A stretch of DNA of 63,477 nt, filler included. It is 4 parts of 4 records of this genome, joined end to end, with 100 filler letters (N's around TTAATTAATTAA, not from the genome) between each part and the next. Parts side by side here need not be neighbours in the genome. Positions count along the whole stretch, not along the records: positions 1 to 26,185 come from SRR20825010_6262; 3 more parts are not named here. One strand, 5' to 3'. Shown in pieces: positions 2,341 to 11,193 of the stretch (the stretch's first letter is position 1; each line of letters starts with the position of its first letter). A program made the position numbers and the translations under genes. The notes under the pieces are model-generated. The model saw only the letters and a program-made list of their open reading frames with translations, did no database searches and had not been told where the DNA came from.

Positions 2341-2370
2341 AAAGAAGGGAGCCGTGGGGCTCCTTTTTTT
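2341..2370. terminator. Intrinsic terminator at the end of the HNH gene
   Basis: GGAGCC-GTGG-GGCTCC hairpin flanked by A-rich and T tracts. Confidence 0.65.
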
Positions 2371-3142
2371 ATTTTCTTAGTCTTTGTTCATTATGATATA
2401 ACAGGAAAGCAGGATCGGGTAAAAATTTGGTTGGTGTCATTATATCTTTCCCCTCAAAAGCCAGAAAATTCCTCTCTATGGATTGATTCTTAATCTTTTT
2501 CAAATCTGGCGAAAGAAGAATTTTATACTCTGGTGAAATGGAAATCAGACCAAGCTCAAAAGCCTTATCGTGAAGCCCATTCATAGCCAGTCCATTTCTT
2601 GGGTTTAATCTATTTTTTTCATCCATACTCCATGGCACGATATGTCCAGCAACCAGTAGTTCTGGCAGGTTAATACCAGTAATACAGCAAGTATTATTGT
2701 AGGATGCAAGAATGGTTTTTCTGAAAAAGGATTGATTGATTCTTGTTCTTACCAATCTTTCTTTTTCACCACCCTCCAATTCTGAAAAATTTGATTCTCC
2801 TAGAGGGGAAGCTTCCAAAACTCCTTTCCTTTTTTCAAACAAAACCTCACTTTCATAGGCTGCCTGATCCCAATTACTATAAAATTCTGTCCAGATTTCC
2901 TTATCCAACTTGCTAGTATGATCGGCTCCTTTGACCCCTCTAGCTTGAAGACTGGGATCGAGACTTGCAAAATTCACGAGTTTATAGGCAATAGCGTTTG
3001 AAGTTCTTCCTAGCAAACTTGCCAATTCCACAATATCTGGATTGCCTCTGTGTATTTTGCCAAAGGGTAATTTGCAGTAGAGATTAATAGCTAGGATAAG
3101 CTCGTCTCGTGTCCAGAGTTGTTGGTGTTTGACGTTTACCAT
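2369..3142 (-). CDS. HNH endonuclease (putative restriction nuclease)
   Basis: C-terminal CCITG..AGHIVPW..NPRNGL..HDKAFELG HNH core; N-terminal helical domain WTRDELILAINLY. Confidence 0.88.
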   Translation of the reverse strand: MVNVKHQQLWTRDELILAINLYCKLPFGKIHRGNPDIVELASLLGRTSNAIAYKLVNFASLDPSLQARGVKGADHTSKLDKEIWTEFYSNWDQAAYESEVLFEKRKGVLEASPLGESNFSELEGGEKERLVRTRINQSFFRKTILASYNNTCCITGINLPELLVAGHIVPWSMDEKNRLNPRNGLAMNGLHDKAFELGLISISPEYKILLSPDLKKIKNQSIERNFLAFEGKDIMTPTKFLPDPAFLLYHNEQRLRK

Positions 3143-3233
3143 CTGAGTATGTGCTTGGTTTTTACAAGAAAATCAGTTATACCTATGTGATTATGAATGA
3201 AGCTTTACTTAATTTTAGGAATTTATCAGAAAA

Positions 3234-4448
3234 ATGAGTAAACCGACATATATTGATTTGTTTGCAGGTTGTGGGGGCTTGTCACTGGGTCTTCACCAAG
3301 CGGGGTGGAAGGGGCTTTTTGCCATAGAAAAAAACGCTGAGGCATTCGCCACTCTTGAGTACAACCTAATTAAAAAATTAGACCATTTCAATTGGCCTAA
3401 TTGGTTAGGTCAAAACAATCATGATATCAATGAAGTACTTCTCAAGCATCATGAAGCTCTAACTGAATTGAGAGGAAAAGTAGATCTAGTCGCTGGTGGG
3501 CCCCCTTGTCAAGGGTTTTCAACTGCAGGACGAAGGGTAGAGAGTGATTCTAGAAATGAGTTAATTGATTCATATCTGGAGTTTATCAAGCTGGTACAAC
3601 CCAAAATTGTTTTTTTCGAAAATGTTAAGGGCTTTACTCAAAGGTTTGAAAAAAACAAAACAAAAGGCAAAGCCTATGCGGATTATGTCAAAGAGAAATT
3701 TGAAAATGAATTAGGGTACTTTGCTGAGGGTCAACTAATTGATTTTTCGAAATTTGGGATACCTCAGAAACGAACACGATTCATTCTTGTGGCCGTGAAA
3801 AAGGAACTCTTAGATGAAAGAGATCAGGTAAAAGAGTTGTTTTTTAATAGCATTTCTGAAAATGCCTCTGGGTTCCTTGTTTCAAAAAACCTGTCATTAA
3901 AAACAAATTTAAGACAAGCAATATCGGACCTCTTGTACGTATACGGGCAGACAACCTCAGACGACAGAAAGGGGTTTGAGTTTGGTGTTTATGGAAAGGC
4001 CTCATCCCAGTATCAGAGGTTTATGAGAAGAGGATCCGCAAATAAATTCCCGAATAGTCACAGCTTCCCAAAGCATAAAGTTGATACTGTTGAGAAGTTT
4101 AAACAGGTTCAGTTGGTTTCTCAGAAGAACAAAAGTTTGAGTAAAAGCGATAGGATAAGGCTTTCCATAAATAAACATGTTACAATTCCTTTGGACGGAA
4201 ATTTCCCTAGCCCAACATTGACAACTCTCCCTGATGATTATGTTCATTACTGTGAGCCTCGTATTCTGACCGTTCGTGAATACGCTAGAATTCAGTCTTT
4301 TCCAGATTGGTTTGAATTCAAAAATAAGTACACGACTGGAGGAAAGAATCGAACAAAAGAAGTTCCGAGATACTCTCAAATAGGAAATGCAATCCCACCA
4401 CTGTTTGGTGAACAGGTCGGACGTACCTTAAAAGCCATTATCAACTAA
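3234..4448 (+). CDS. DNA (cytosine-5)-methyltransferase
   Basis: Motifs I FAGCGG, IV GPPCQ, VI ENV, VIII QKRTR, IX/X REYARIQSFPD..IGNAIPP. Confidence 0.95.
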   Translation: MSKPTYIDLFAGCGGLSLGLHQAGWKGLFAIEKNAEAFATLEYNLIKKLDHFNWPNWLGQNNHDINEVLLKHHEALTELRGKVDLVAGGPPCQGFSTAGRRVESDSRNELIDSYLEFIKLVQPKIVFFENVKGFTQRFEKNKTKGKAYADYVKEKFENELGYFAEGQLIDFSKFGIPQKRTRFILVAVKKELLDERDQVKELFFNSISENASGFLVSKNLSLKTNLRQAISDLLYVYGQTTSDDRKGFEFGVYGKASSQYQRFMRRGSANKFPNSHSFPKHKVDTVEKFKQVQLVSQKNKSLSKSDRIRLSINKHVTIPLDGNFPSPTLTTLPDDYVHYCEPRILTVREYARIQSFPDWFEFKNKYTTGGKNRTKEVPRYSQIGNAIPPLFGEQVGRTLKAIIN

Positions 4449-6958
4449 TGGGGAAAGTAAGCTTTAGAACTAATGTTCTTCTCAAGAATATTATTGGGAA
4501 AGACCTTATAACAGATGATAATATAGCTGTTCAGGAACTAGTCAAGAACTCGTTTGATGCGGGTTCAACTATTTCTAGGATCGAATTTATTAATACCAAA
4601 CACAATCAATCAACACAGAATTACAAACGTTTAAATAATTCTCAAATAATTATTTCGGATTTTGGTAAAGGAATGTCTGAATTTGATTTGGAGAATAAAT
4701 GGTTAAATATTGCGTATTCTGAAAAGAAGGAGAAAAAACAGGAGTATAATCGACAACTAGCAGGGAACAAAGGTGTTGGACGGTTTTCTTGTGATCGTCT
4801 TGGTAAATTATTAACAATCTTCACCAAGGAAAAGGGCGGTGAAATTTTAAAGCTTCATATAGACTGGAGAGATTTAGAGCAGATTGATGACATTAACCTT
4901 AACATACAGGACATCAAATTTGATCTGGAGTCAATTTCTTTAAAGGAATTTAGAGAGCAAAAAGGAATTCAGACCCTTGGAATAGAGTCTTTTGAAAGCG
5001 GTACGATTTTATGTATTCAATCATTACGGGAAGAATGGGATCGTAGCAAGATTCTATCATTAAAGCGGCAGATTGAGAAACTAATAAGCCCTAACCAGAC
5101 CTTTAATTCTGAAAAATTTGAGATTGAGATTGTCGCAGGTGAGTATAAAGAAGGTGATAAGAAAATTCCAGAGTACGATAGACTAAATGGCTTAGTCGAA
5201 AATAAAATTTTCGAAAAGTTAAACTTTAAAGTAACCAGTATTCAATCCAAAGTTACAAGAGATGGATCCAAAATAATCACAATTTTAAAGGATCAAGGCA
5301 CACCTATTTTTACATTAGTGGAAAGCAACCCATATGATCTTCTAAAGAACATTAAGACTAATATTTTCTATTTGAACCCGTATTCTAAGGCCTATTTTAA
5401 AAGGCAAACGGGTATCCGGTTAGTTGATTTTGGTTCTATTTCGCTATTTATTAACGGATTTAGAATACCGCCGTATGGAGATGCAGGAGATGATTGGTTA
5501 GGAATAGAGGCGAGAAGAGGACAAGGGACATCCAGATATCTTGGAAGAAGGGAGGTCGTGGGCAGAGTTGAAGTGTTTGAGAATCGCGAGACAAGTGATG
5601 ACGAAGACGATGAGTTCAAGATAATATCGAGTAGATCTGGTGTCCGCGACAATAAAATATTTAGGCAGTTGGCAAAAAGCACCAGCCCCTTTGGTTTTTA
5701 CTATAAAGCTTTTAGACGACTAGAAAGGTTTGTTGTGGAAGGAATTAGCTGGGATAGTGCCATAAAAAAGAATATTGAGAAAGACATTGAAAATGATCCT
5801 GATTGGGATGAATCCAAGGAACAATACAAACTTGACCAAATAACAAGAAATAGACAGATACTATCAGTTGTTGATAAAATAATTGGCCTTAAACAGGATG
5901 ATATAATTAAGCTTTACATCAATAAAGAGTTTATTTCAGATCTTATCGAAACCCAGATTGAGAAGCTAAACGAAGACCTCTCGTTAATTTCTGAGCAATT
6001 GAAAAGTAAAAACTTGACTTCTGATGAGCTTAATGAATTTCTTAAACAAGTAGGAAAATCGCAAGAAGAGATCGAATCTTTTAGTAAGGAGCTCGGATCA
6101 CGTCTTACTGATGTAAGTGATTTTGAGAAGAGTAAAAAAAATTTGGTTAAAAGCCAATCTGATTTACATGAAGTGATTACAAACTTAAAAAGTAAACTTG
6201 ACGCTCAAGAAAAATCAATTAAGGAGTTGGAAGAGGCCAAGCAAGAAGCCGAAAGGCATCTTGAATTTGAAAAAGAAAAGAACACGTATTTACGAGCTTC
6301 TAGCAAAAACCTAAGTGAAGATGCAAAGGGGCTTATTCATAACATCAAATTAACCTCAAAGGATATTAGATCTAATGTGAATACTTTAATAGAGAAGATA
6401 TCGAGGAAAGATATTAAGGAGAAAGAGCTACTTCGAAGATTAAGTGTTATCAAGTTCAATTCTGAAAAAGCCCTCAAAATAAGCCGCTTAATCACTAGAT
6501 CAAATTTCAAGACCCAGGCGAACACGCAGGTTGTAGATATAGCAAAGTATATTGAACAATATATTGCTATATATTCAGATATATATGAAAATAGCCGAAT
6601 CGAATTTCAGGTAAGAAAGGCGACAAATGCGTTTTTGGAAAAAAAAATAAGTGTACTTGAGCTGTCATTAGTATTTGATGATTTGATTTCCAATTCAGAT
6701 AAAGCCGGAGCAACTAAAATTCTAATAGACATTGATGATAGTCTCGATGTTCTTTTTTCTGATAACGGAAAGGGATTGGACGAAAAATTTATCAACAACC
6801 CTGAATCAATTTTTGAACTGGGGATAACAACAACGGAAGACGGCTCTGGGATAGGTCTTCATTCAGTTCGAAAATCCCTTTCAGCAATGAAAGCTTCTAT
6901 AGAATTTGTTGGAAATAAGGTGGTTTTAAATGGGGCCACATTTAAAATAAGTTTTTGA
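4448..6958 (+). CDS. MORC/MutL-type GHKL ATPase fused via a coiled coil to a histidine kinase (cytoplasmic)
   Basis: N-terminal ELVKNSFDA, ISDFGKGM, GNKGVGRF; C-terminal H-box LIHNIK, N-box LISNS, FSDNGKG, FELGITT, GSGIGL; no transmembrane segment; TAATG overlap with the MTase. Confidence 0.85.
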   Translation: MGKVSFRTNVLLKNIIGKDLITDDNIAVQELVKNSFDAGSTISRIEFINTKHNQSTQNYKRLNNSQIIISDFGKGMSEFDLENKWLNIAYSEKKEKKQEYNRQLAGNKGVGRFSCDRLGKLLTIFTKEKGGEILKLHIDWRDLEQIDDINLNIQDIKFDLESISLKEFREQKGIQTLGIESFESGTILCIQSLREEWDRSKILSLKRQIEKLISPNQTFNSEKFEIEIVAGEYKEGDKKIPEYDRLNGLVENKIFEKLNFKVTSIQSKVTRDGSKIITILKDQGTPIFTLVESNPYDLLKNIKTNIFYLNPYSKAYFKRQTGIRLVDFGSISLFINGFRIPPYGDAGDDWLGIEARRGQGTSRYLGRREVVGRVEVFENRETSDDEDDEFKIISSRSGVRDNKIFRQLAKSTSPFGFYYKAFRRLERFVVEGISWDSAIKKNIEKDIENDPDWDESKEQYKLDQITRNRQILSVVDKIIGLKQDDIIKLYINKEFISDLIETQIEKLNEDLSLISEQLKSKNLTSDELNEFLKQVGKSQEEIESFSKELGSRLTDVSDFEKSKKNLVKSQSDLHEVITNLKSKLDAQEKSIKELEEAKQEAERHLEFEKEKNTYLRASSKNLSEDAKGLIHNIKLTSKDIRSNVNTLIEKISRKDIKEKELLRRLSVIKFNSEKALKISRLITRSNFKTQANTQVVDIAKYIEQYIAIYSDIYENSRIEFQVRKATNAFLEKKISVLELSLVFDDLISNSDKAGATKILIDIDDSLDVLFSDNGKGLDEKFINNPESIFELGITTTEDGSGIGLHSVRKSLSAMKASIEFVGNKVVLNGATFKISF

Positions 6959-6961
6959 TTG

Positions 6962-7663
6962 ATGGAAAAGTACTGCCTTATAATTGATAATGATGATCAG
7001 ACGTCAAGTATTGAAACCATTAACCGAGAAGCCAAGAAAAAACGTTTAAAAGTAAAGTGCTTTCAATTCAACGTTGGCTCACAATCAAATGATGAATTAT
7101 TAACTGATAATAGAATCGATCTAAAAAAGGTTGAATTAGAATTCAGAGAAAGATTTAAGGGGCAAACATTTGATCTAATAGCATTTGACTGGTCTTTGGA
7201 TGATGACGATATAAATGGGGTTGATTTGATAAGATACTTTGAATCAAAAAAAATTCGAAGGAAAACGCCAAAATTTCTTTATTCAGGACAACTAAAGGAT
7301 GAAATGGAAAGTGTTTTGGAGAGGTATAAGAGCGAGAACATTACCTTTATCAAGGCATGGACTCAAATAAGGACGCTGATCGAAATAGATATTGTAGATT
7401 TTAAGGATCGAGAGGAATATGAAAAAGCCATAGTAAATATACTTGATAAGACAAGTCCAAATCTAGATACACTTCTGCTGAAGGAACTTCGCAGCAATCC
7501 AGACGTCAAGTTTAATGGGACCGTTGAAGGACTTCTAGGGAAAACTTTTGAAGAAATAGCGGAGATTATAGAAAATGATATAACAATGGGAGACTCATTC
7601 AAAATTACTTTATTGGAGCAAGCTGTAGCGTATCTAGCAGAATTGAAAGATTATTCCTTATAG
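6962..7663 (+). CDS. Response-regulator receiver (REC) protein with no recognisable output domain
   Basis: LIIDND acidic pocket, DLIAFDWSL phospho-acceptor strand, NGVDLI, FLYSG; ATG 3 nt after the kinase stop (in-frame TTG at 6959). Confidence 0.75.
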   Translation: MEKYCLIIDNDDQTSSIETINREAKKKRLKVKCFQFNVGSQSNDELLTDNRIDLKKVELEFRERFKGQTFDLIAFDWSLDDDDINGVDLIRYFESKKIRRKTPKFLYSGQLKDEMESVLERYKSENITFIKAWTQIRTLIEIDIVDFKDREEYEKAIVNILDKTSPNLDTLLLKELRSNPDVKFNGTVEGLLGKTFEEIAEIIENDITMGDSFKITLLEQAVAYLAELKDYSL

Positions 7664-7666
7664 AAT

Positions 7667-8326
7667 ATGTTGCTGATAATTCACCCATCAGATAATTCCA
7701 CATCATTCTTAGAACCTGTTTGGAATACATGTATTAAAACAATAGGAAGTGAAATATGTATATATAACATAGGCTTTGATGAAGAAGAGCACGATTTGGC
7801 CATTGAAGAAATTCGATCAGGGCCTTATGAAAATGTTTTATTCATGGGGCATGGAAGTTCGAAATCTCTACATGGTGCAAAATCAAAAGACTATAAGAAC
7901 GAATTTTTTATTAAAAAAAAAGACCTAGATATTTTTCATGCAAAGAAGTTGCTGTGTTTATCATGTAAATCTTCAGAACTACTTTCTGGTGAAAAATCCT
8001 TTGATTTTGTTGGCTTTGGTGAGTTGCCCACAGAAATTGAAGAAGTGACTGCTGCAAGAGAGTTTGATGCACAGATTTACACAAATGTAGATCCAGATGT
8101 TTTGAAAGCTTTTCAGGATATTTTGGTTTCCATAATTACAAAGTCAACATTAGACTGGCATCTGAATAACTATGGTATGGTTCAAGTATTTCATAGAATT
8201 AGGTTAAGAATTAATAAAGAAATCACCAATCAATTGATATCTGGCCATCTGAAGTCGGCTCAGCGGCAAGGCTTAATTAAACTGTTACTGGATATGAAGA
8301 ATGAGATTAGTCTGCATCAGAGATAG
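7667..8326 (+). CDS. Hypothetical protein, putative caspase/CHAT-like cysteine protease
   Basis: Hydrophobic strand + GHG (VLFMGHG, His62) and hydrophobic strand + SC (LLCLSC, Cys100). Confidence 0.55.
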   Translation: MLLIIHPSDNSTSFLEPVWNTCIKTIGSEICIYNIGFDEEEHDLAIEEIRSGPYENVLFMGHGSSKSLHGAKSKDYKNEFFIKKKDLDIFHAKKLLCLSCKSSELLSGEKSFDFVGFGELPTEIEEVTAAREFDAQIYTNVDPDVLKAFQDILVSIITKSTLDWHLNNYGMVQVFHRIRLRINKEITNQLISGHLKSAQRQGLIKLLLDMKNEISLHQR

Positions 8327-8490
8327 CTTCAAATGTTCTACCATGCTAATTTTTTTTCAAGAGTTCTTTAAACCAATTTCCGTGGATGTAGTAGCGAGTT
8401 ATGAACCCCCTCACCTTTCCCATTTCTTTTTATCTTAGGCCCTGCACAACTGTTCTGTGAAAAGCTGTGTCGGTTTTAAAAACCCAACCT

Positions 8491-9018
8491 ATGAAAGCAC
8501 TACTACTGGCGGCAGCCATTCTCTTTCTGATTTCATGCGATCCCTATGTGCCGGAGTTTCCCGACGGTGCGGTGCAGGGCATGCGCCCCGTGTACCGGGA
8601 CTCCAGTCAGTTCGTCATCCGCCTGGCGGCCAGCCGTCCGCTGCTGCGCGCAGGCAAGATTTACAGCTATGGGGATTTTCTACTGATCAACGAGGTGGAG
8701 GAGGGCATCCACGTGGTGGACAACAGCGATCCGGCCCATCCGCAAACGATCTATTTTATTGAGGTGCCTGGCAACACCGACATGGCTATCAAAGATGGCA
8801 AGCTCTATGTCAACAATTTTTCGGACCTGGTAGCCCTGGAGGTGAGCGCCACGGAATTTCGGGAAATCTCCCGGTTTAAGAACCTGTTTCTGGAAGAAGG
8901 CTTTGAGGACCATCCACCCCAATCGGATGTGTACTTTGAATGTGTGGATTCGGAAAAGGGCGAACTCATTGGCTGGGAAGTGACGATACTGGAGGCACCT
9001 GAATGTTACAAACGATGA
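8491..9018 (+). CDS. Lipoprotein with LVIVD-like repeats
   Basis: Lipobox LISC; GIHVVDNSDPAHP..FIEVPGNTDMAIK. Confidence 0.75.
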   Translation: MKALLLAAAILFLISCDPYVPEFPDGAVQGMRPVYRDSSQFVIRLAASRPLLRAGKIYSYGDFLLINEVEEGIHVVDNSDPAHPQTIYFIEVPGNTDMAIKDGKLYVNNFSDLVALEVSATEFREISRFKNLFLEEGFEDHPPQSDVYFECVDSEKGELIGWEVTILEAPECYKR

Positions 9019-9755
9019 GAAAACCCTTCTACCTGCTCCTTGCCCTGCTGCTGATGCGCTGCGCAAGCGACGATACGCCGACTGTTTCCCTGGGGCCTGG
9101 CACGGGAACCGGCATTGGTGGTTCTACGGCTCGCTTCACGATTAAAGACGATTACCTCTACATTGCCACAGATTCGCGCCTGAAGGTGTTGCATGTGTCG
9201 GATGCGGCTGCACCGGAGTTGGTCAGCGACCTACCGCTTTTCTTTGGTCTGGAAACGATTTTCAGTTATAAAAACAATTTATTTATCGGTTCGAACGATG
9301 CGGTGTATATCTACAGCCTTTCGGACCCGGCCAACCCGAAATACCTGACGCGCTTCATCCACCAGACGGCCTGCGATCCGGTCATTGCCTACGGGAACTT
9401 CGCCTATATCACCGTGCGTGATGGACAAACCTGCCGGGGGGCGGTTACGAATCAATTGATCACGGTAGACATTTCGGATCTGGAAAAACCCGTGCAGATG
9501 GATGCCATAGAGATGGTGCGCCCCAGGGGCCTGACTATTTTTAATGGCGACTTGTATGTGGGTGAGGGAATCTACGGGCTGAAGAAATTTGATATCGCGG
9601 TAGGCCATAAACCCAGGCTGGATACTTTTTATACGGCTATCGCCTGCAATGACCTGATCGGATTGCCGGAACGGCTTATCATCACCGAAAATGAGGGTGT
9701 GGGCCAGTACGTTTTGGAAAATGATTCTTTGAAACTTTTGAGTAAGATCGAATGA
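9015..9755 (+). CDS. LVIVD-repeat lipoprotein
   Basis: Signal ending LLMRC; GGSTARFTI, repeats YIYSLSDPANP / ITVDISDLEKP, CDPV; ATGA coupling. Confidence 0.8.
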   Translation: MRKPFYLLLALLLMRCASDDTPTVSLGPGTGTGIGGSTARFTIKDDYLYIATDSRLKVLHVSDAAAPELVSDLPLFFGLETIFSYKNNLFIGSNDAVYIYSLSDPANPKYLTRFIHQTACDPVIAYGNFAYITVRDGQTCRGAVTNQLITVDISDLEKPVQMDAIEMVRPRGLTIFNGDLYVGEGIYGLKKFDIAVGHKPRLDTFYTAIACNDLIGLPERLIITENEGVGQYVLENDSLKLLSKIE

Positions 9756-10420
9756 TGCTGCGACCTGTCCTTCTTATTTTCCTGGGCTTTTCTTTGCTGC
9801 AAGCCAGTGGTCAGGTGGAACTGGAAAAACCGGTGAAGCCGGTTTTGTACCTGAAAGGCGAATTTCTAAATCTGTTAAATCCGGTTGATCCTTCGGTATT
9901 GGTTTCGCTGGAATATTTCCCGACGGGAGATCATTTCTCCATCACGCATGAGCTTGGCTATGTGGCGGAGATCAGGCAATACGATAACGTAGCGATCACG
10001 CGCAGCTTCAAAACGCGGCACGAGTTGCGCTACTATTTTCACGAAGCTGAGGGAGCCGGTAGTGCGTTACCCTATGTCGCTATTGATTTTCAATACCGGA
10101 AGTTGACGGTGAATGAACGCTATGTCCTGGGGTACGAGTGCGAGCTGGGCGACTGTACCTATTACCGCAATTATACCGGAGACTTTCGAACGAAACGCTA
10201 TGCCGCTACGTTGATCGGGGGCTTACAATACAAGTTGGGAAAACGTGTCGTTCTGGATACGGATTATGGCGTGGGTGGCTATCAATACAACCTCAATCGC
10301 TCGGAGCTGGAGGGTGGTTTGCTGATAGAAAATGATCGGTTTCTGGAGGAGGATAAATTTGGCTGGAGGTGGTATGCCACGGCCCATATCAAGTTGGGGT
10401 ATTTGATTATTGGGAGGTAA
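9752..10420 (+). CDS. Putative outer-membrane beta-barrel protein
   Basis: Signal peptide, alternating aromatic strands, C-terminal HIKLGYLI; ATGA coupling. Confidence 0.6.
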   Translation: MMLRPVLLIFLGFSLLQASGQVELEKPVKPVLYLKGEFLNLLNPVDPSVLVSLEYFPTGDHFSITHELGYVAEIRQYDNVAITRSFKTRHELRYYFHEAEGAGSALPYVAIDFQYRKLTVNERYVLGYECELGDCTYYRNYTGDFRTKRYAATLIGGLQYKLGKRVVLDTDYGVGGYQYNLNRSELEGGLLIENDRFLEEDKFGWRWYATAHIKLGYLIIGR

Positions 10421-10681
10421 GGGGTTGTTTTTAGAACCGCAGAGAAATGAAGGACGCGGAGGTTTGAGGAAATTGGACGCACCATCATTCGCTCGGAATA
10501 CTATTATGTAAGGCATCCTGCCCGGTTAAAGGGATGAAACCAAACGGAACTTTAATTTACAAATTAAGAGAACATTCCACTTGTATCTCAGTAGATTAAA
10601 ATATCCGAAATTGCTAGTTTCAGCAATGCAAGACACTAGAAAACACGAATAAATTGTTACTTTGTAGCAAAGCGCACAGAC

Positions 10682-10909
10682 ATGGATATTCAGGCAGAAA
10701 AATTAAGATTGATAGAATGGCTTGCTGGGCTAAATGATTCCAAAACCCTTAATGAGTTCATTGCTTTGAAGAAAGAGAAGGAAGTGGATTGGTGGGATCA
10801 AATGAGCAAAGAAGAACGATCTGAGATAGAAGAGGGACTTGCCCAGGCAGACAAAGGGGAGGTGACTCCTCATGCAGAGGTAATGGCAAAGTATAAAAAA
10901 TGGCTTTAG
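10682..10909 (+). CDS. Antitoxin (addiction-module component)
   Basis: MDIQAEKLRLIEW..DWWDQMS..IEEGLAQADKGEV; overlaps the toxin gene. Confidence 0.85.
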   Translation: MDIQAEKLRLIEWLAGLNDSKTLNEFIALKKEKEVDWWDQMSKEERSEIEEGLAQADKGEVTPHAEVMAKYKKWL

Positions 10910-11193
10910 AAATCGTTTGGACAAAGCGAGCTGAGGCAGGTTATGCAAAGATCATAGCTTATCTTGAAACCCATTTCACGGATCAGGAGATTAGCAAGTT
11001 TGTTCGTGAGACTCATGGATTTTTTGAGTTGCTCCGCCATTACCCTGAAATGTTTGAGAGTACTGAAAAACACAAGAATGTGCATCGGGGACCGATTAAT
11101 AGATACACACTATTGACCTACCGGGTCAAACCTCGAAAGGGTCAAATTGAACTGATCAATATCCGCTCTTCAAGGCAAAAACCAATCAAGTAA
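10900..11193 (+). CDS. RelE/ParE-family toxin
   Basis: IVWTKRAE..IIAYL..YPEMF..LTYRV..IRSSRQKP. Confidence 0.88.
   Translation: MALEIVWTKRAEAGYAKIIAYLETHFTDQEISKFVRETHGFFELLRHYPEMFESTEKHKNVHRGPINRYTLLTYRVKPRKGQIELINIRSSRQKPIK

Follow-up and report, generated by a model that had tools for sequence, protein, structure and literature searches.

Positions 3234 to 8326 of the stretch of DNA analysed here (63,477 nucleotides (nt), hereafter the window, of which positions 1 to 26,185 come from record SRR20825010_6262) encode a C5 cytosine DNA methyltransferase, a kinase with two GHKL-type ATPase domains, a CheY-like receiver and a small caspase-fold protein. Found again at 34 of 79 related loci from several phyla, this methyltransferase-kinase-receiver-protease block is a genuinely conserved unit, and its arrangement is far beyond what chance would produce. 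Judging from its sequence, the block is probably a horizontally mobile four-gene conflict cassette, with defence against phages as its most likely function and a relay of phosphate between its proteins as its mode of action.

Conservation of the four-gene cassette

Related loci were collected by searching species-representative genomes with a profile of the 836-amino-acid (aa) kinase, which gave 80 loci for comparison, 79 of them with a kinase open reading frame (ORF). The kinase has many more relatives, with 3730 matches at E ≤ 0.001. A homologue of the C5 methyltransferase ends no more than 150 nt upstream of the kinase and on the same strand in 75 of these 79 loci; it lies a few kb away in three and was not found in one. 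On the other side, 76 loci have a receiver gene whose start is no more than 150 nt downstream of the kinase. In two of the three exceptions the contig stops at the kinase or shortly beyond it, and in the third the kinase is truncated. The receiver is followed by a caspase-like gene, as in the window, in 34 loci, and two further contigs end just past the receiver. An earlier note on this DNA, made from the letters alone, had proposed a candidate defence system here and had left to a neighbourhood search whether the gene order occurs elsewhere; the order methyltransferase, kinase, receiver and protease does recur, in the 34 loci just mentioned. Cassettes of this caspase type were found in many families of Bacteroidota, in a metagenome-assembled genome (MAG) of Gastranaerophilales (Melainabacteria), in a MAG of an archaeon (Thermoplasmata) and in a gammaproteobacterial genome, a range of taxa that points to lateral spread of the cassette.

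Positions are those of the whole window throughout; ORFs were taken from a six-frame listing and their junctions were read base by base (Table 1). Together with a divergently transcribed HNH nuclease gene, the cassette makes up five ORFs that occupy 2369-8326, with intervening gaps of 91, 0, 3 and 3 nt. The methyltransferase and kinase genes overlap in a TAATG at 4446-4450, the kinase gene ends in TGA (6956-6958) ahead of an ATG at 6962, and the receiver gene ends in TAG (7661-7663) ahead of an ATG at 7667. Junctions that overlap or lie 3 nt apart argue that the four plus-strand genes are translationally coupled. The five ORFs and their near-gapless junctions had been described in the earlier note, and its coordinates proved exact, including the TAATG overlap, the 3-nt gaps and the 91-nt divergent gap. 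That divergent gap is presumed to hold the promoter region; a scan for terminators and for the sigma-70 consensus, which is unsuited to promoters of the Bacteroidota type, stayed at background level (23 found against 19.5 expected), and no sigma-70 promoter was placed within 3143-3233.

Table 1. Genes of the cassette, the adjoining nuclease gene and the regions of the kinase, in window positions or kinase residues (aa).
Feature	Position	Strand	Length	Residues
HNH_2-type endonuclease gene	2369-3142	-	257 aa	
Divergent intergenic stretch between HNH and methyltransferase starts	3143-3233		91 nt	
C5 cytosine DNA methyltransferase gene	3234-4448	+	404 aa	
Dual-GHKL kinase gene	4448-6958	+	836 aa	
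Kinase, N-terminal HATPase_c_3 / Hsp90-like ATPase	aa 25-153			Glu30 at 4535-4537, Asn34
Kinase, strongly conserved middle region	about aa 300-440			
Kinase, coiled coil and DHp-like helix				His631 at 6338-6340
Kinase, C-terminal histidine-kinase catalytic domain	aa 738-834			Asn749, Asp772, Gly799/801/803
Receiver (CheY-like) gene	6959-7663 from TTG, or 6962-7663 from likely ATG	+	234 aa (TTG) or 233 aa (ATG)	
Caspase-fold protein gene	7667-8326	+	219 aa	

Catalytic domains of the encoded proteins

The methyltransferase matches PF00145 (E = 1.4e-52) and TIGR00675 (E = 4.2e-45). Its translation contains FAGCGG, GGPPCQGFS, ENV, QKRTR and GNAIPP, the standard motifs of C5 methyltransferases, with Cys92 of GGPPCQGFS (3507-3509) as the catalytic residue. 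With this catalytic set intact, the enzyme looks active. Apart from HNH genes, the only recurrent neighbours of the related cassettes are HhH-GPD genes (endonuclease-III-like glycosylases), second methylases (8 loci) and Vsr genes, none of them an alternative nuclease. HhH-GPD genes lie directly beside the cassette in nine loci (L012, L013, L014, L028, L034, L035, L040, L044 and L054) and Vsr genes in seven (L027, L043, L045, L054, L057, L078 and L079). As T:G-mismatch repair companions of active 5-methylcytosine methylases, HhH-GPD and Vsr argue that the host genome is really methylated.

The kinase matches both PF13589 (HATPase_c_3, E = 7.8e-20) and PF02518 (E = 1.8e-11). Profile searches of the PDB matched residues 6-132 to the N-domains of Hsp90, the nearest solved sequences, and residues 675-824 to the sensor kinases YycG, ZraS and PhoQ (E = 4e-5 to 1e-4). 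Across 78 full-length homologues, His631, Asn749 of the N-box, and Gly774 and Gly799/801/803 of the G-box are invariant, and Asp772 is conserved in 77; the N-terminal ATPase likewise keeps Glu30, Asn34 and Asp71 in 77 of the 78. His631 and Asn749 are 118 residues apart, a spacing typical of histidine kinases. The best explanation is a cytoplasmic kinase in which an ATPase of the Hsp90/paraMORC type replaces the sensor domain. The label MORC, given to this protein in the earlier note, holds only at the level of a HATPase_c_3 / Hsp90-like GHL ATPase.

Homologues of this kinase are also paired with N6-adenine methylases, either HsdM-like or Eco57I-like (L119, L114), and on the Hymenobacter plasmid NZ_CP014303.1 (L092) a kinase/N6-methylase cluster adjoins a gene with a Piwi domain (Argonaute-like). 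At another locus (L018), on a contig labelled as a Rhizobium MAG, the cassette kinase shares 53% identity with the Bacteroidota-type kinase of the window, which may reflect mis-binning or a recent transfer.

Since neither the receiver nor the caspase-fold protein had a match in Pfam, NCBIfam or PADLOC, both were folded with alignments from the related loci. PF00072 reached only E = 0.071 on the window receiver. Its AlphaFold model (predicted local distance difference test, pLDDT, 89; residues numbered from the TTG at 6959) has a receiver fold to about aa 168, followed by a short helical tail. Foldseek returned 231 PDB matches at E ≤ 0.001, of which the listed top matches are all receiver domains, and the best VIA-align match was 3ilh (Z 11.0, root-mean-square deviation (rmsd) 3.0, 127 residues aligned). 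The receiver sites comprise an acidic pocket at Asp10/Asp12-13, the phospho-acceptor Asp77 (7187-7189) and Ser109 (7283-7285); Asp77 is invariant in 37 of 37 sequences, with conservation of at least 90% at Asp10 and Ser109. By its predicted structure, then, gene 4 of the five is a CheY-like receiver-fold protein. No DNA-binding output domain or winged helix-turn-helix (wHTH) was detected on it, either by Pfam or by the whole-model fold search, which covers residues 2-174; the helical tail (aa 170-234) was not searched separately by structure, and an ESM Atlas search with the tail gave no usable match.

The caspase-fold protein was modelled with a pLDDT of 96, and its top Foldseek matches were caspase-4, SAVED-CHAT, caspase-7 and MALT1 (E = 2e-5). 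In VIA-align it was closest to SAVED-CHAT (8tl0_C; Z 13.6, rmsd 3.0, 166 residues aligned), followed by gingipain K (Z 11.0) and by legumain, MALT1 and caspase-6/7 (about Z 10). His62 (7850-7852), in a GHG, follows strand 3 of the model (aa 56-60) and Cys100 (7964-7966) follows strand 4 (aa 94-98); these are the canonical positions of the clan-CD dyad. Both residues are invariant in all 145 aligned members, which are 20-45% identical to the window protein. None of 35 members matched a named peptidase family (C14, CHAT, C25 and others) in Pfam at or above cut-off, and the sub-threshold matches among them were single ones, to C80, C50 and C25. At E ≤ 0.001 a search with the protein yielded 961 cluster representatives, of which the top 150 are all stand-alone proteins of 169-250 aa; none of the longer, fused forms (458-2000 aa) scored, which is weak evidence. 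On its model, gene 5 is a miniature stand-alone protein of the clan-CD cysteine-protease fold (caspase/CHAT/gingipain-like) and a putative peptidase. With SAVED-CHAT, which belongs to type III CRISPR/CBASS-like signalling (8tl0), it has in common the His-Cys clan-CD fold and the proposed role of a protease as switched effector. It differs in being a bare 219-aa domain without a sensor domain and in having no Pfam-level sequence similarity, and a phosphorylated receiver would presumably take the place of the cyclic nucleotide as its switch. Among the immunity-linked prokaryotic relatives of caspases, these very small caspase-fold proteins (about 210-250 aa) make up a further family, as yet without a name.

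The domain assignments made in the earlier note are borne out by these searches, by Pfam for the HNH protein, the C5 methylase and the kinase, and only by structure prediction and fold search for the receiver and the caspase fold. Its predictions of catalytic residues were correct across the cassette, down to the protease dyad of His62 and Cys100.

Exchange of the last module

Our comparison of the related loci revealed a second form of the cassette, present in 32 of them, in which the receiver protein, at about 300 aa, includes a fused helical domain bearing the motif RNxxAH. Profile comparison showed that fused and unfused receivers are homologous in the receiver domain only, and PF00072 matches 23 of the 32 fused receivers (best E = 2.2e-09). 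Within the motif R-N-x-x-A-H, all 32 sequences have R241, A245 and H246, while conservation at N242 is at least 90%. The fused domain has repeated sub-threshold Pfam matches to five HEPN families, namely HEPN_RiboL-PSP (0.0016), Abi_2 (0.0079), Swt1, Apea and MAE_28990. A profile search of the PDB with the fused receivers gave significant matches to receiver domains only and none to HEPN, and an ESM Atlas search with the HEPN-like domain of one relative returned no named family. From its motif and these matches, the fused domain is probably an RNase of the HEPN type, controlled by the phosphorelay. The same domain also carries an invariant Arg-Gly ahead of the RNxxAH motif (L024, L027, L028, L030, L061:10535-11443 and others).

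The last module of the cassette is therefore exchanged among relatives at a fixed position, where a protease, an RNxxAH domain or neither is found. Exchange between toxic modules of the RNase and protease types is typical of defence systems.

Relationship to known systems

The combination of a C5 methylase, a kinase with HATPase_c_3, HEF_HK and HATPase_c domains and a Response_reg_2 protein has been described as a predicted two-component-like system linked to restriction-modification, with Vsr and HNH_2, the commonest nuclease domain, frequent in its vicinity (Bellieny-Rabelo et al. 2021, PMC8011034, in the part of the text available). That module and the window have the gene order in common (a C5 methylase, a kinase composed of HATPase_c_3, a His-bearing helix and HATPase_c, and a receiver), and the HEF_HK kinases are homologous to the window kinase in three regions (phmmer E = 1e-18 to 1e-19). 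The window proteins have no match to PF19191 or PF19192 even at E ≤ 10; bona fide HEF_HK kinases score 6.3e-07 to 2.2e-27 on PF19191, and the best relative reaches E = 0.013 on PF19192 (16 bits against a cut-off of 27). Bona fide HEF_HK members, which were found in 3 of 400 gammaproteobacterial genomes and have the same gene order, also differ in size, with kinases of 991-1003 aa against 836 aa in the window and receiver-like proteins of 555-617 aa against 234 aa. By sequence, the window cassette is a sister branch of the HEF_HK / Response_reg_2 family and not a member of it. No caspase-like gene and no HEPN-like domain is named in the available part of the 2021 paper (PMC8011034), which mentions uncharacterised groups of neighbours (OG_20 and others).

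A second point of comparison is Ambrosia of Pseudomonas aeruginosa, which comprises AbrR (XRE), AbrA (N6-adenine methylase), AbrB (histidine kinase/HSP90-like ATPase), AbrC (receiver-wHTH) and AbrD (HNH), and which was shown in 2025 to block phages in a manner that needs the Asp of its receiver (van den Berg et al., bioRxiv 10.1101/2025.09.30.679545, as far as its available text goes). Likened by architecture and not by sequence, Ambrosia and the window both cluster a DNA methyltransferase, a HATPase-type kinase and a receiver, with an HNH gene alongside. The differences are several. The methylase of Ambrosia is an N6-adenine enzyme, whereas that of the window is a C5 cytosine methylase (PF00145); its XRE gene has no counterpart in the window cluster, where none of the five ORFs has a helix-turn-helix match in Pfam, and just 3 of the 80 related loci have small XRE-like ORFs, situated 1.8-2.3 kb upstream. 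Its receiver has a wHTH, and none was detected on the window receiver, the tail of which (aa 170-234) was not searched separately by structure. The window has the caspase-fold protease in addition, and its HNH gene is divergent and is dispensable in relatives.

Similarities also exist to the MORC/paraMORC genes, which encode an N-terminal GHKL ATPase and lie beside a cytosine methylase, Vsr and sometimes HNH, with a patchy and lateral distribution (Iyer, Abhiman & Aravind 2008, PMC2292703). The window cassette resembles them in its N-terminal GHKL ATPase with intact motifs, its methylase neighbour and its patchy, laterally acquired distribution. It differs from them in its partners, since those of paraMORC/MORC are a nuclease, helicase or TIR, and the available part of that paper mentions no histidine-kinase extension, receiver or caspase (PMC2292703). 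Two further candidates were rejected as relatives: MADS, which the available text presents as an operon of eight genes whose ATPase-nuclease modules are of the OLD type (PMC13662399), and Tiamat/MzaB, to which relatives of the cassette show only weak N-terminal GHKL similarity.

The cassette is thus a putative phage defence armed with a protease, a variant within the methylation-linked class that was recognised only recently. In the literature searched, no description was found of a caspase-like or HEPN-like module in methylase-kinase-receiver cassettes; supplementary gene groups may contain such modules under anonymous names. The earlier note had not recognised the combination as a named system, and this is right for the caspase/HEPN effector layer, which our literature searches found undescribed and for which PADLOC has no model, but not for the kind of system, which has already been published (PMC8011034; Ambrosia 2025).

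Proposed mechanism and alternative explanations

The relay that we propose would begin with the methyltransferase, which would mark the host's own DNA. The N-terminal ATPase module of the kinase would read the state of the DNA or its methylation, or another cue of infection, upon which the kinase would autophosphorylate at His631 and hand the phosphate on to the receiver at Asp77. In this phosphorylated state, the receiver would turn on the protease post-translationally, and the protease would cleave host or phage proteins so that the infection, or the cell, is stopped. A direct step from receiver to protease is suggested by the absence of a detected DNA-binding output on the receiver and by the relatives that fuse the receiver straight to an enzyme domain. 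The mechanism offered in the earlier note, in which self-marking and sensing of the DNA state lead through a His-Asp relay to a protease or nuclease, plausibly fits this swapping of effectors. In its most specific form we put the idea forward only tentatively, as one possible reading short of an even chance: a methylation-linked GHKL kinase might phosphorylate a single-domain receiver that directly licenses the caspase-fold protease, or the fused HEPN-like RNase in the sister cassettes, to arrest infected or de-methylated cells.

Several points weigh against this relay. Clan-CD folds also include transamidases and ligases, and proteolysis is hence uncertain. The conserved Lys expected of a receiver was not securely identified, eight of the related loci have a bare receiver of about 130 aa with no evident effector, and PADLOC v2 has no model matching genes 3-5 (kinase, receiver and caspase-fold protein) or their relatives. 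In Ambrosia, methylation by AbrA alone does not protect a phage, and its authors favour transcriptional control through the receiver-wHTH (bioRxiv 10.1101/2025.09.30.679545, available text). The self-marking and post-translational steps are therefore not simply transferable from one system to the other.

The alternative that survives best, which we nevertheless regard as unlikely, is a five-gene system resembling Ambrosia, in which the HNH nuclease would be the real effector, the kinase and receiver would control it and the methyltransferase, transcriptionally or otherwise, and the caspase-like protein would be accessory. Ambrosia needs its HNH protein, type-IV-like according to its authors, together with methylase, kinase and receiver (bioRxiv 10.1101/2025.09.30.679545, available text), and HNH_2 is the commonest nuclease domain near the sister family (PMC8011034, available text). 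The window nuclease is of this HNH_2 type (core about aa 152-202 with His167; PF13391, E = 2.4e-10) and is encoded head-to-head with the methyltransferase, 91 nt away. Its core matches the HNH endonuclease 6yex in the PDB (E = 1.4e-10, catalytic core only) and PT-DNA_restrict in NCBIfam (E = 1.3e-13, below cut-off), and PADLOC matches it to HNH PDLC04132 (E = 1.9e-93) and to PDLC03546, 'Type II restriction enzyme' (E = 2.2e-41). Homologues touch the cassette at other loci as well, but at only 3 of 80, each in a different arrangement, and a whole-genome search at E ≤ 1e-10 found none in any of the seven other caspase-type genomes, with all three positive controls found. The HNH family is moreover very widespread (6375 matches, many at 60-87% identity, the best at 87%), far wider and more conserved than the cassette, as expected of an independent gene. 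A transcriptional version of this alternative would also have to do without a detected DNA-binding output on the receiver, within the fold search already described, in which the tail (aa 170-234) was not searched separately by structure. Being rare at related loci and part of a wider and better conserved family, the HNH gene appears to be an optional neighbour on which the cassette does not depend, and its inclusion by the earlier note as a member of a five-gene system was not upheld by the related loci. It would be a restriction enzyme, either cognate or type-IV-like, that perhaps acts together with the cassette as AbrD does in Ambrosia.

We judge it improbable that the block is instead purely a selfish epigenetic addiction element, whose relay would monitor methylation of the host's own DNA and kill cells that lose the cassette (post-segregational killing). 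The tight coupling of methyltransferase and kinase (75 of 79 loci) would suit such an element, as would effectors of toxic types at loci that mostly lack a dedicated DNA nuclease, and the mobile, AT-rich nature of the block and its position between ParE addiction modules; classical restriction-modification systems behave in this way (PMC8011034, available text). Addiction is nonetheless compatible with defence and not exclusive of it, and the sole tested analogue, Ambrosia, protects against phage without toxicity to the host (bioRxiv 10.1101/2025.09.30.679545, available text). Least likely by our estimate, and very improbable, is an ordinary two-component regulator that tunes restriction-modification or DNA-repair genes to a cytoplasmic cue, with the caspase-fold protein as a non-toxic processing enzyme: a regulatory interpretation was proposed by the 2021 authors (PMC8011034, available text) and the repair genes Vsr and HhH-GPD are the commonest neighbours, but no DNA-binding domain was detected on the receiver, which in 32 loci is fused to an Rx4H HEPN-like domain, and the distribution is patchy and crosses phyla.

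If the relay from kinase through receiver to protease holds true, two-component signalling would gate a caspase-type executioner, and the cassette would be a restriction-modification-like system whose 'restriction' acts on proteins or RNA instead of DNA. A role in phage defence has been demonstrated only very recently for cassettes that join a methylase to two-component proteins, and Ambrosia is the single example. The branch described here is large and compact and swaps its last module, and would thereby offer a clean genetic system for studying a receiver-gated toxic enzyme and methylation as a self signal.

Genomic setting of the cassette

The guanine-cytosine (GC) content of the cassette, at 35.6%, is below that of the window overall (46.7%) and of the right flank (8327-10500; 50.3%), in agreement with the greater AT-richness relative to that flank that the earlier note had remarked on. 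It is not the AT-richest part of the window, as the region from 54 to 63 kb has 31-34% GC. Along the window as a whole, GC content forms a mosaic, with 37-46% in the first 27 kb, 51-63% between 27 and 54 kb and 31-34% thereafter, which suggests further foreign blocks or an assembly join.

Pfam matches to ParE toxins flank the cassette on both sides, at 493-705 on the minus strand and 10900-11193 on the plus strand, and the presumed antitoxin ORFs beside them have no family match; the bracketing by toxin-antitoxin modules described in the earlier note is confirmed to this extent. The two ParE genes face outwards in inverted orientation (493-1033 and 10682-11193), and a 21-nt inverted repeat lies at the starts of the small ORFs that precede them (923-943 and 10682-10702). 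The outward orientation and the common repeat suggest two paralogous toxin-antitoxin pairs that bracket about 9.7 kb, within which lie an HU-HIG gene, the HNH gene and the cassette. The boundaries of this island have neither flanking direct repeats nor tRNA genes. A search for sequencing runs that contain the cassette listed none, whether of DNA or of RNA.

The wider surroundings of the related cassettes were sampled with PADLOC on 120 ORFs drawn at random from the 422 flanking ones that have 180 aa or more and lie within 6 kb; among the matches listed there were methylase models only, with three members each, a result that is uninformative on defence-island context.

To the right of the cassette in the window, 8467-10420 holds three GC-rich ORFs (about 50-55%), one with an LVIVD repeat and the others without a family match. 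On the left, a 14-nt unit is present in about six tandem copies at 266-351, and a palindromic element resembling repetitive extragenic palindromic (REP) sequences, with the core AGCCCTGAAAGGGC, occurs in six copies arranged in two clusters (109-216 and 1111-1424).

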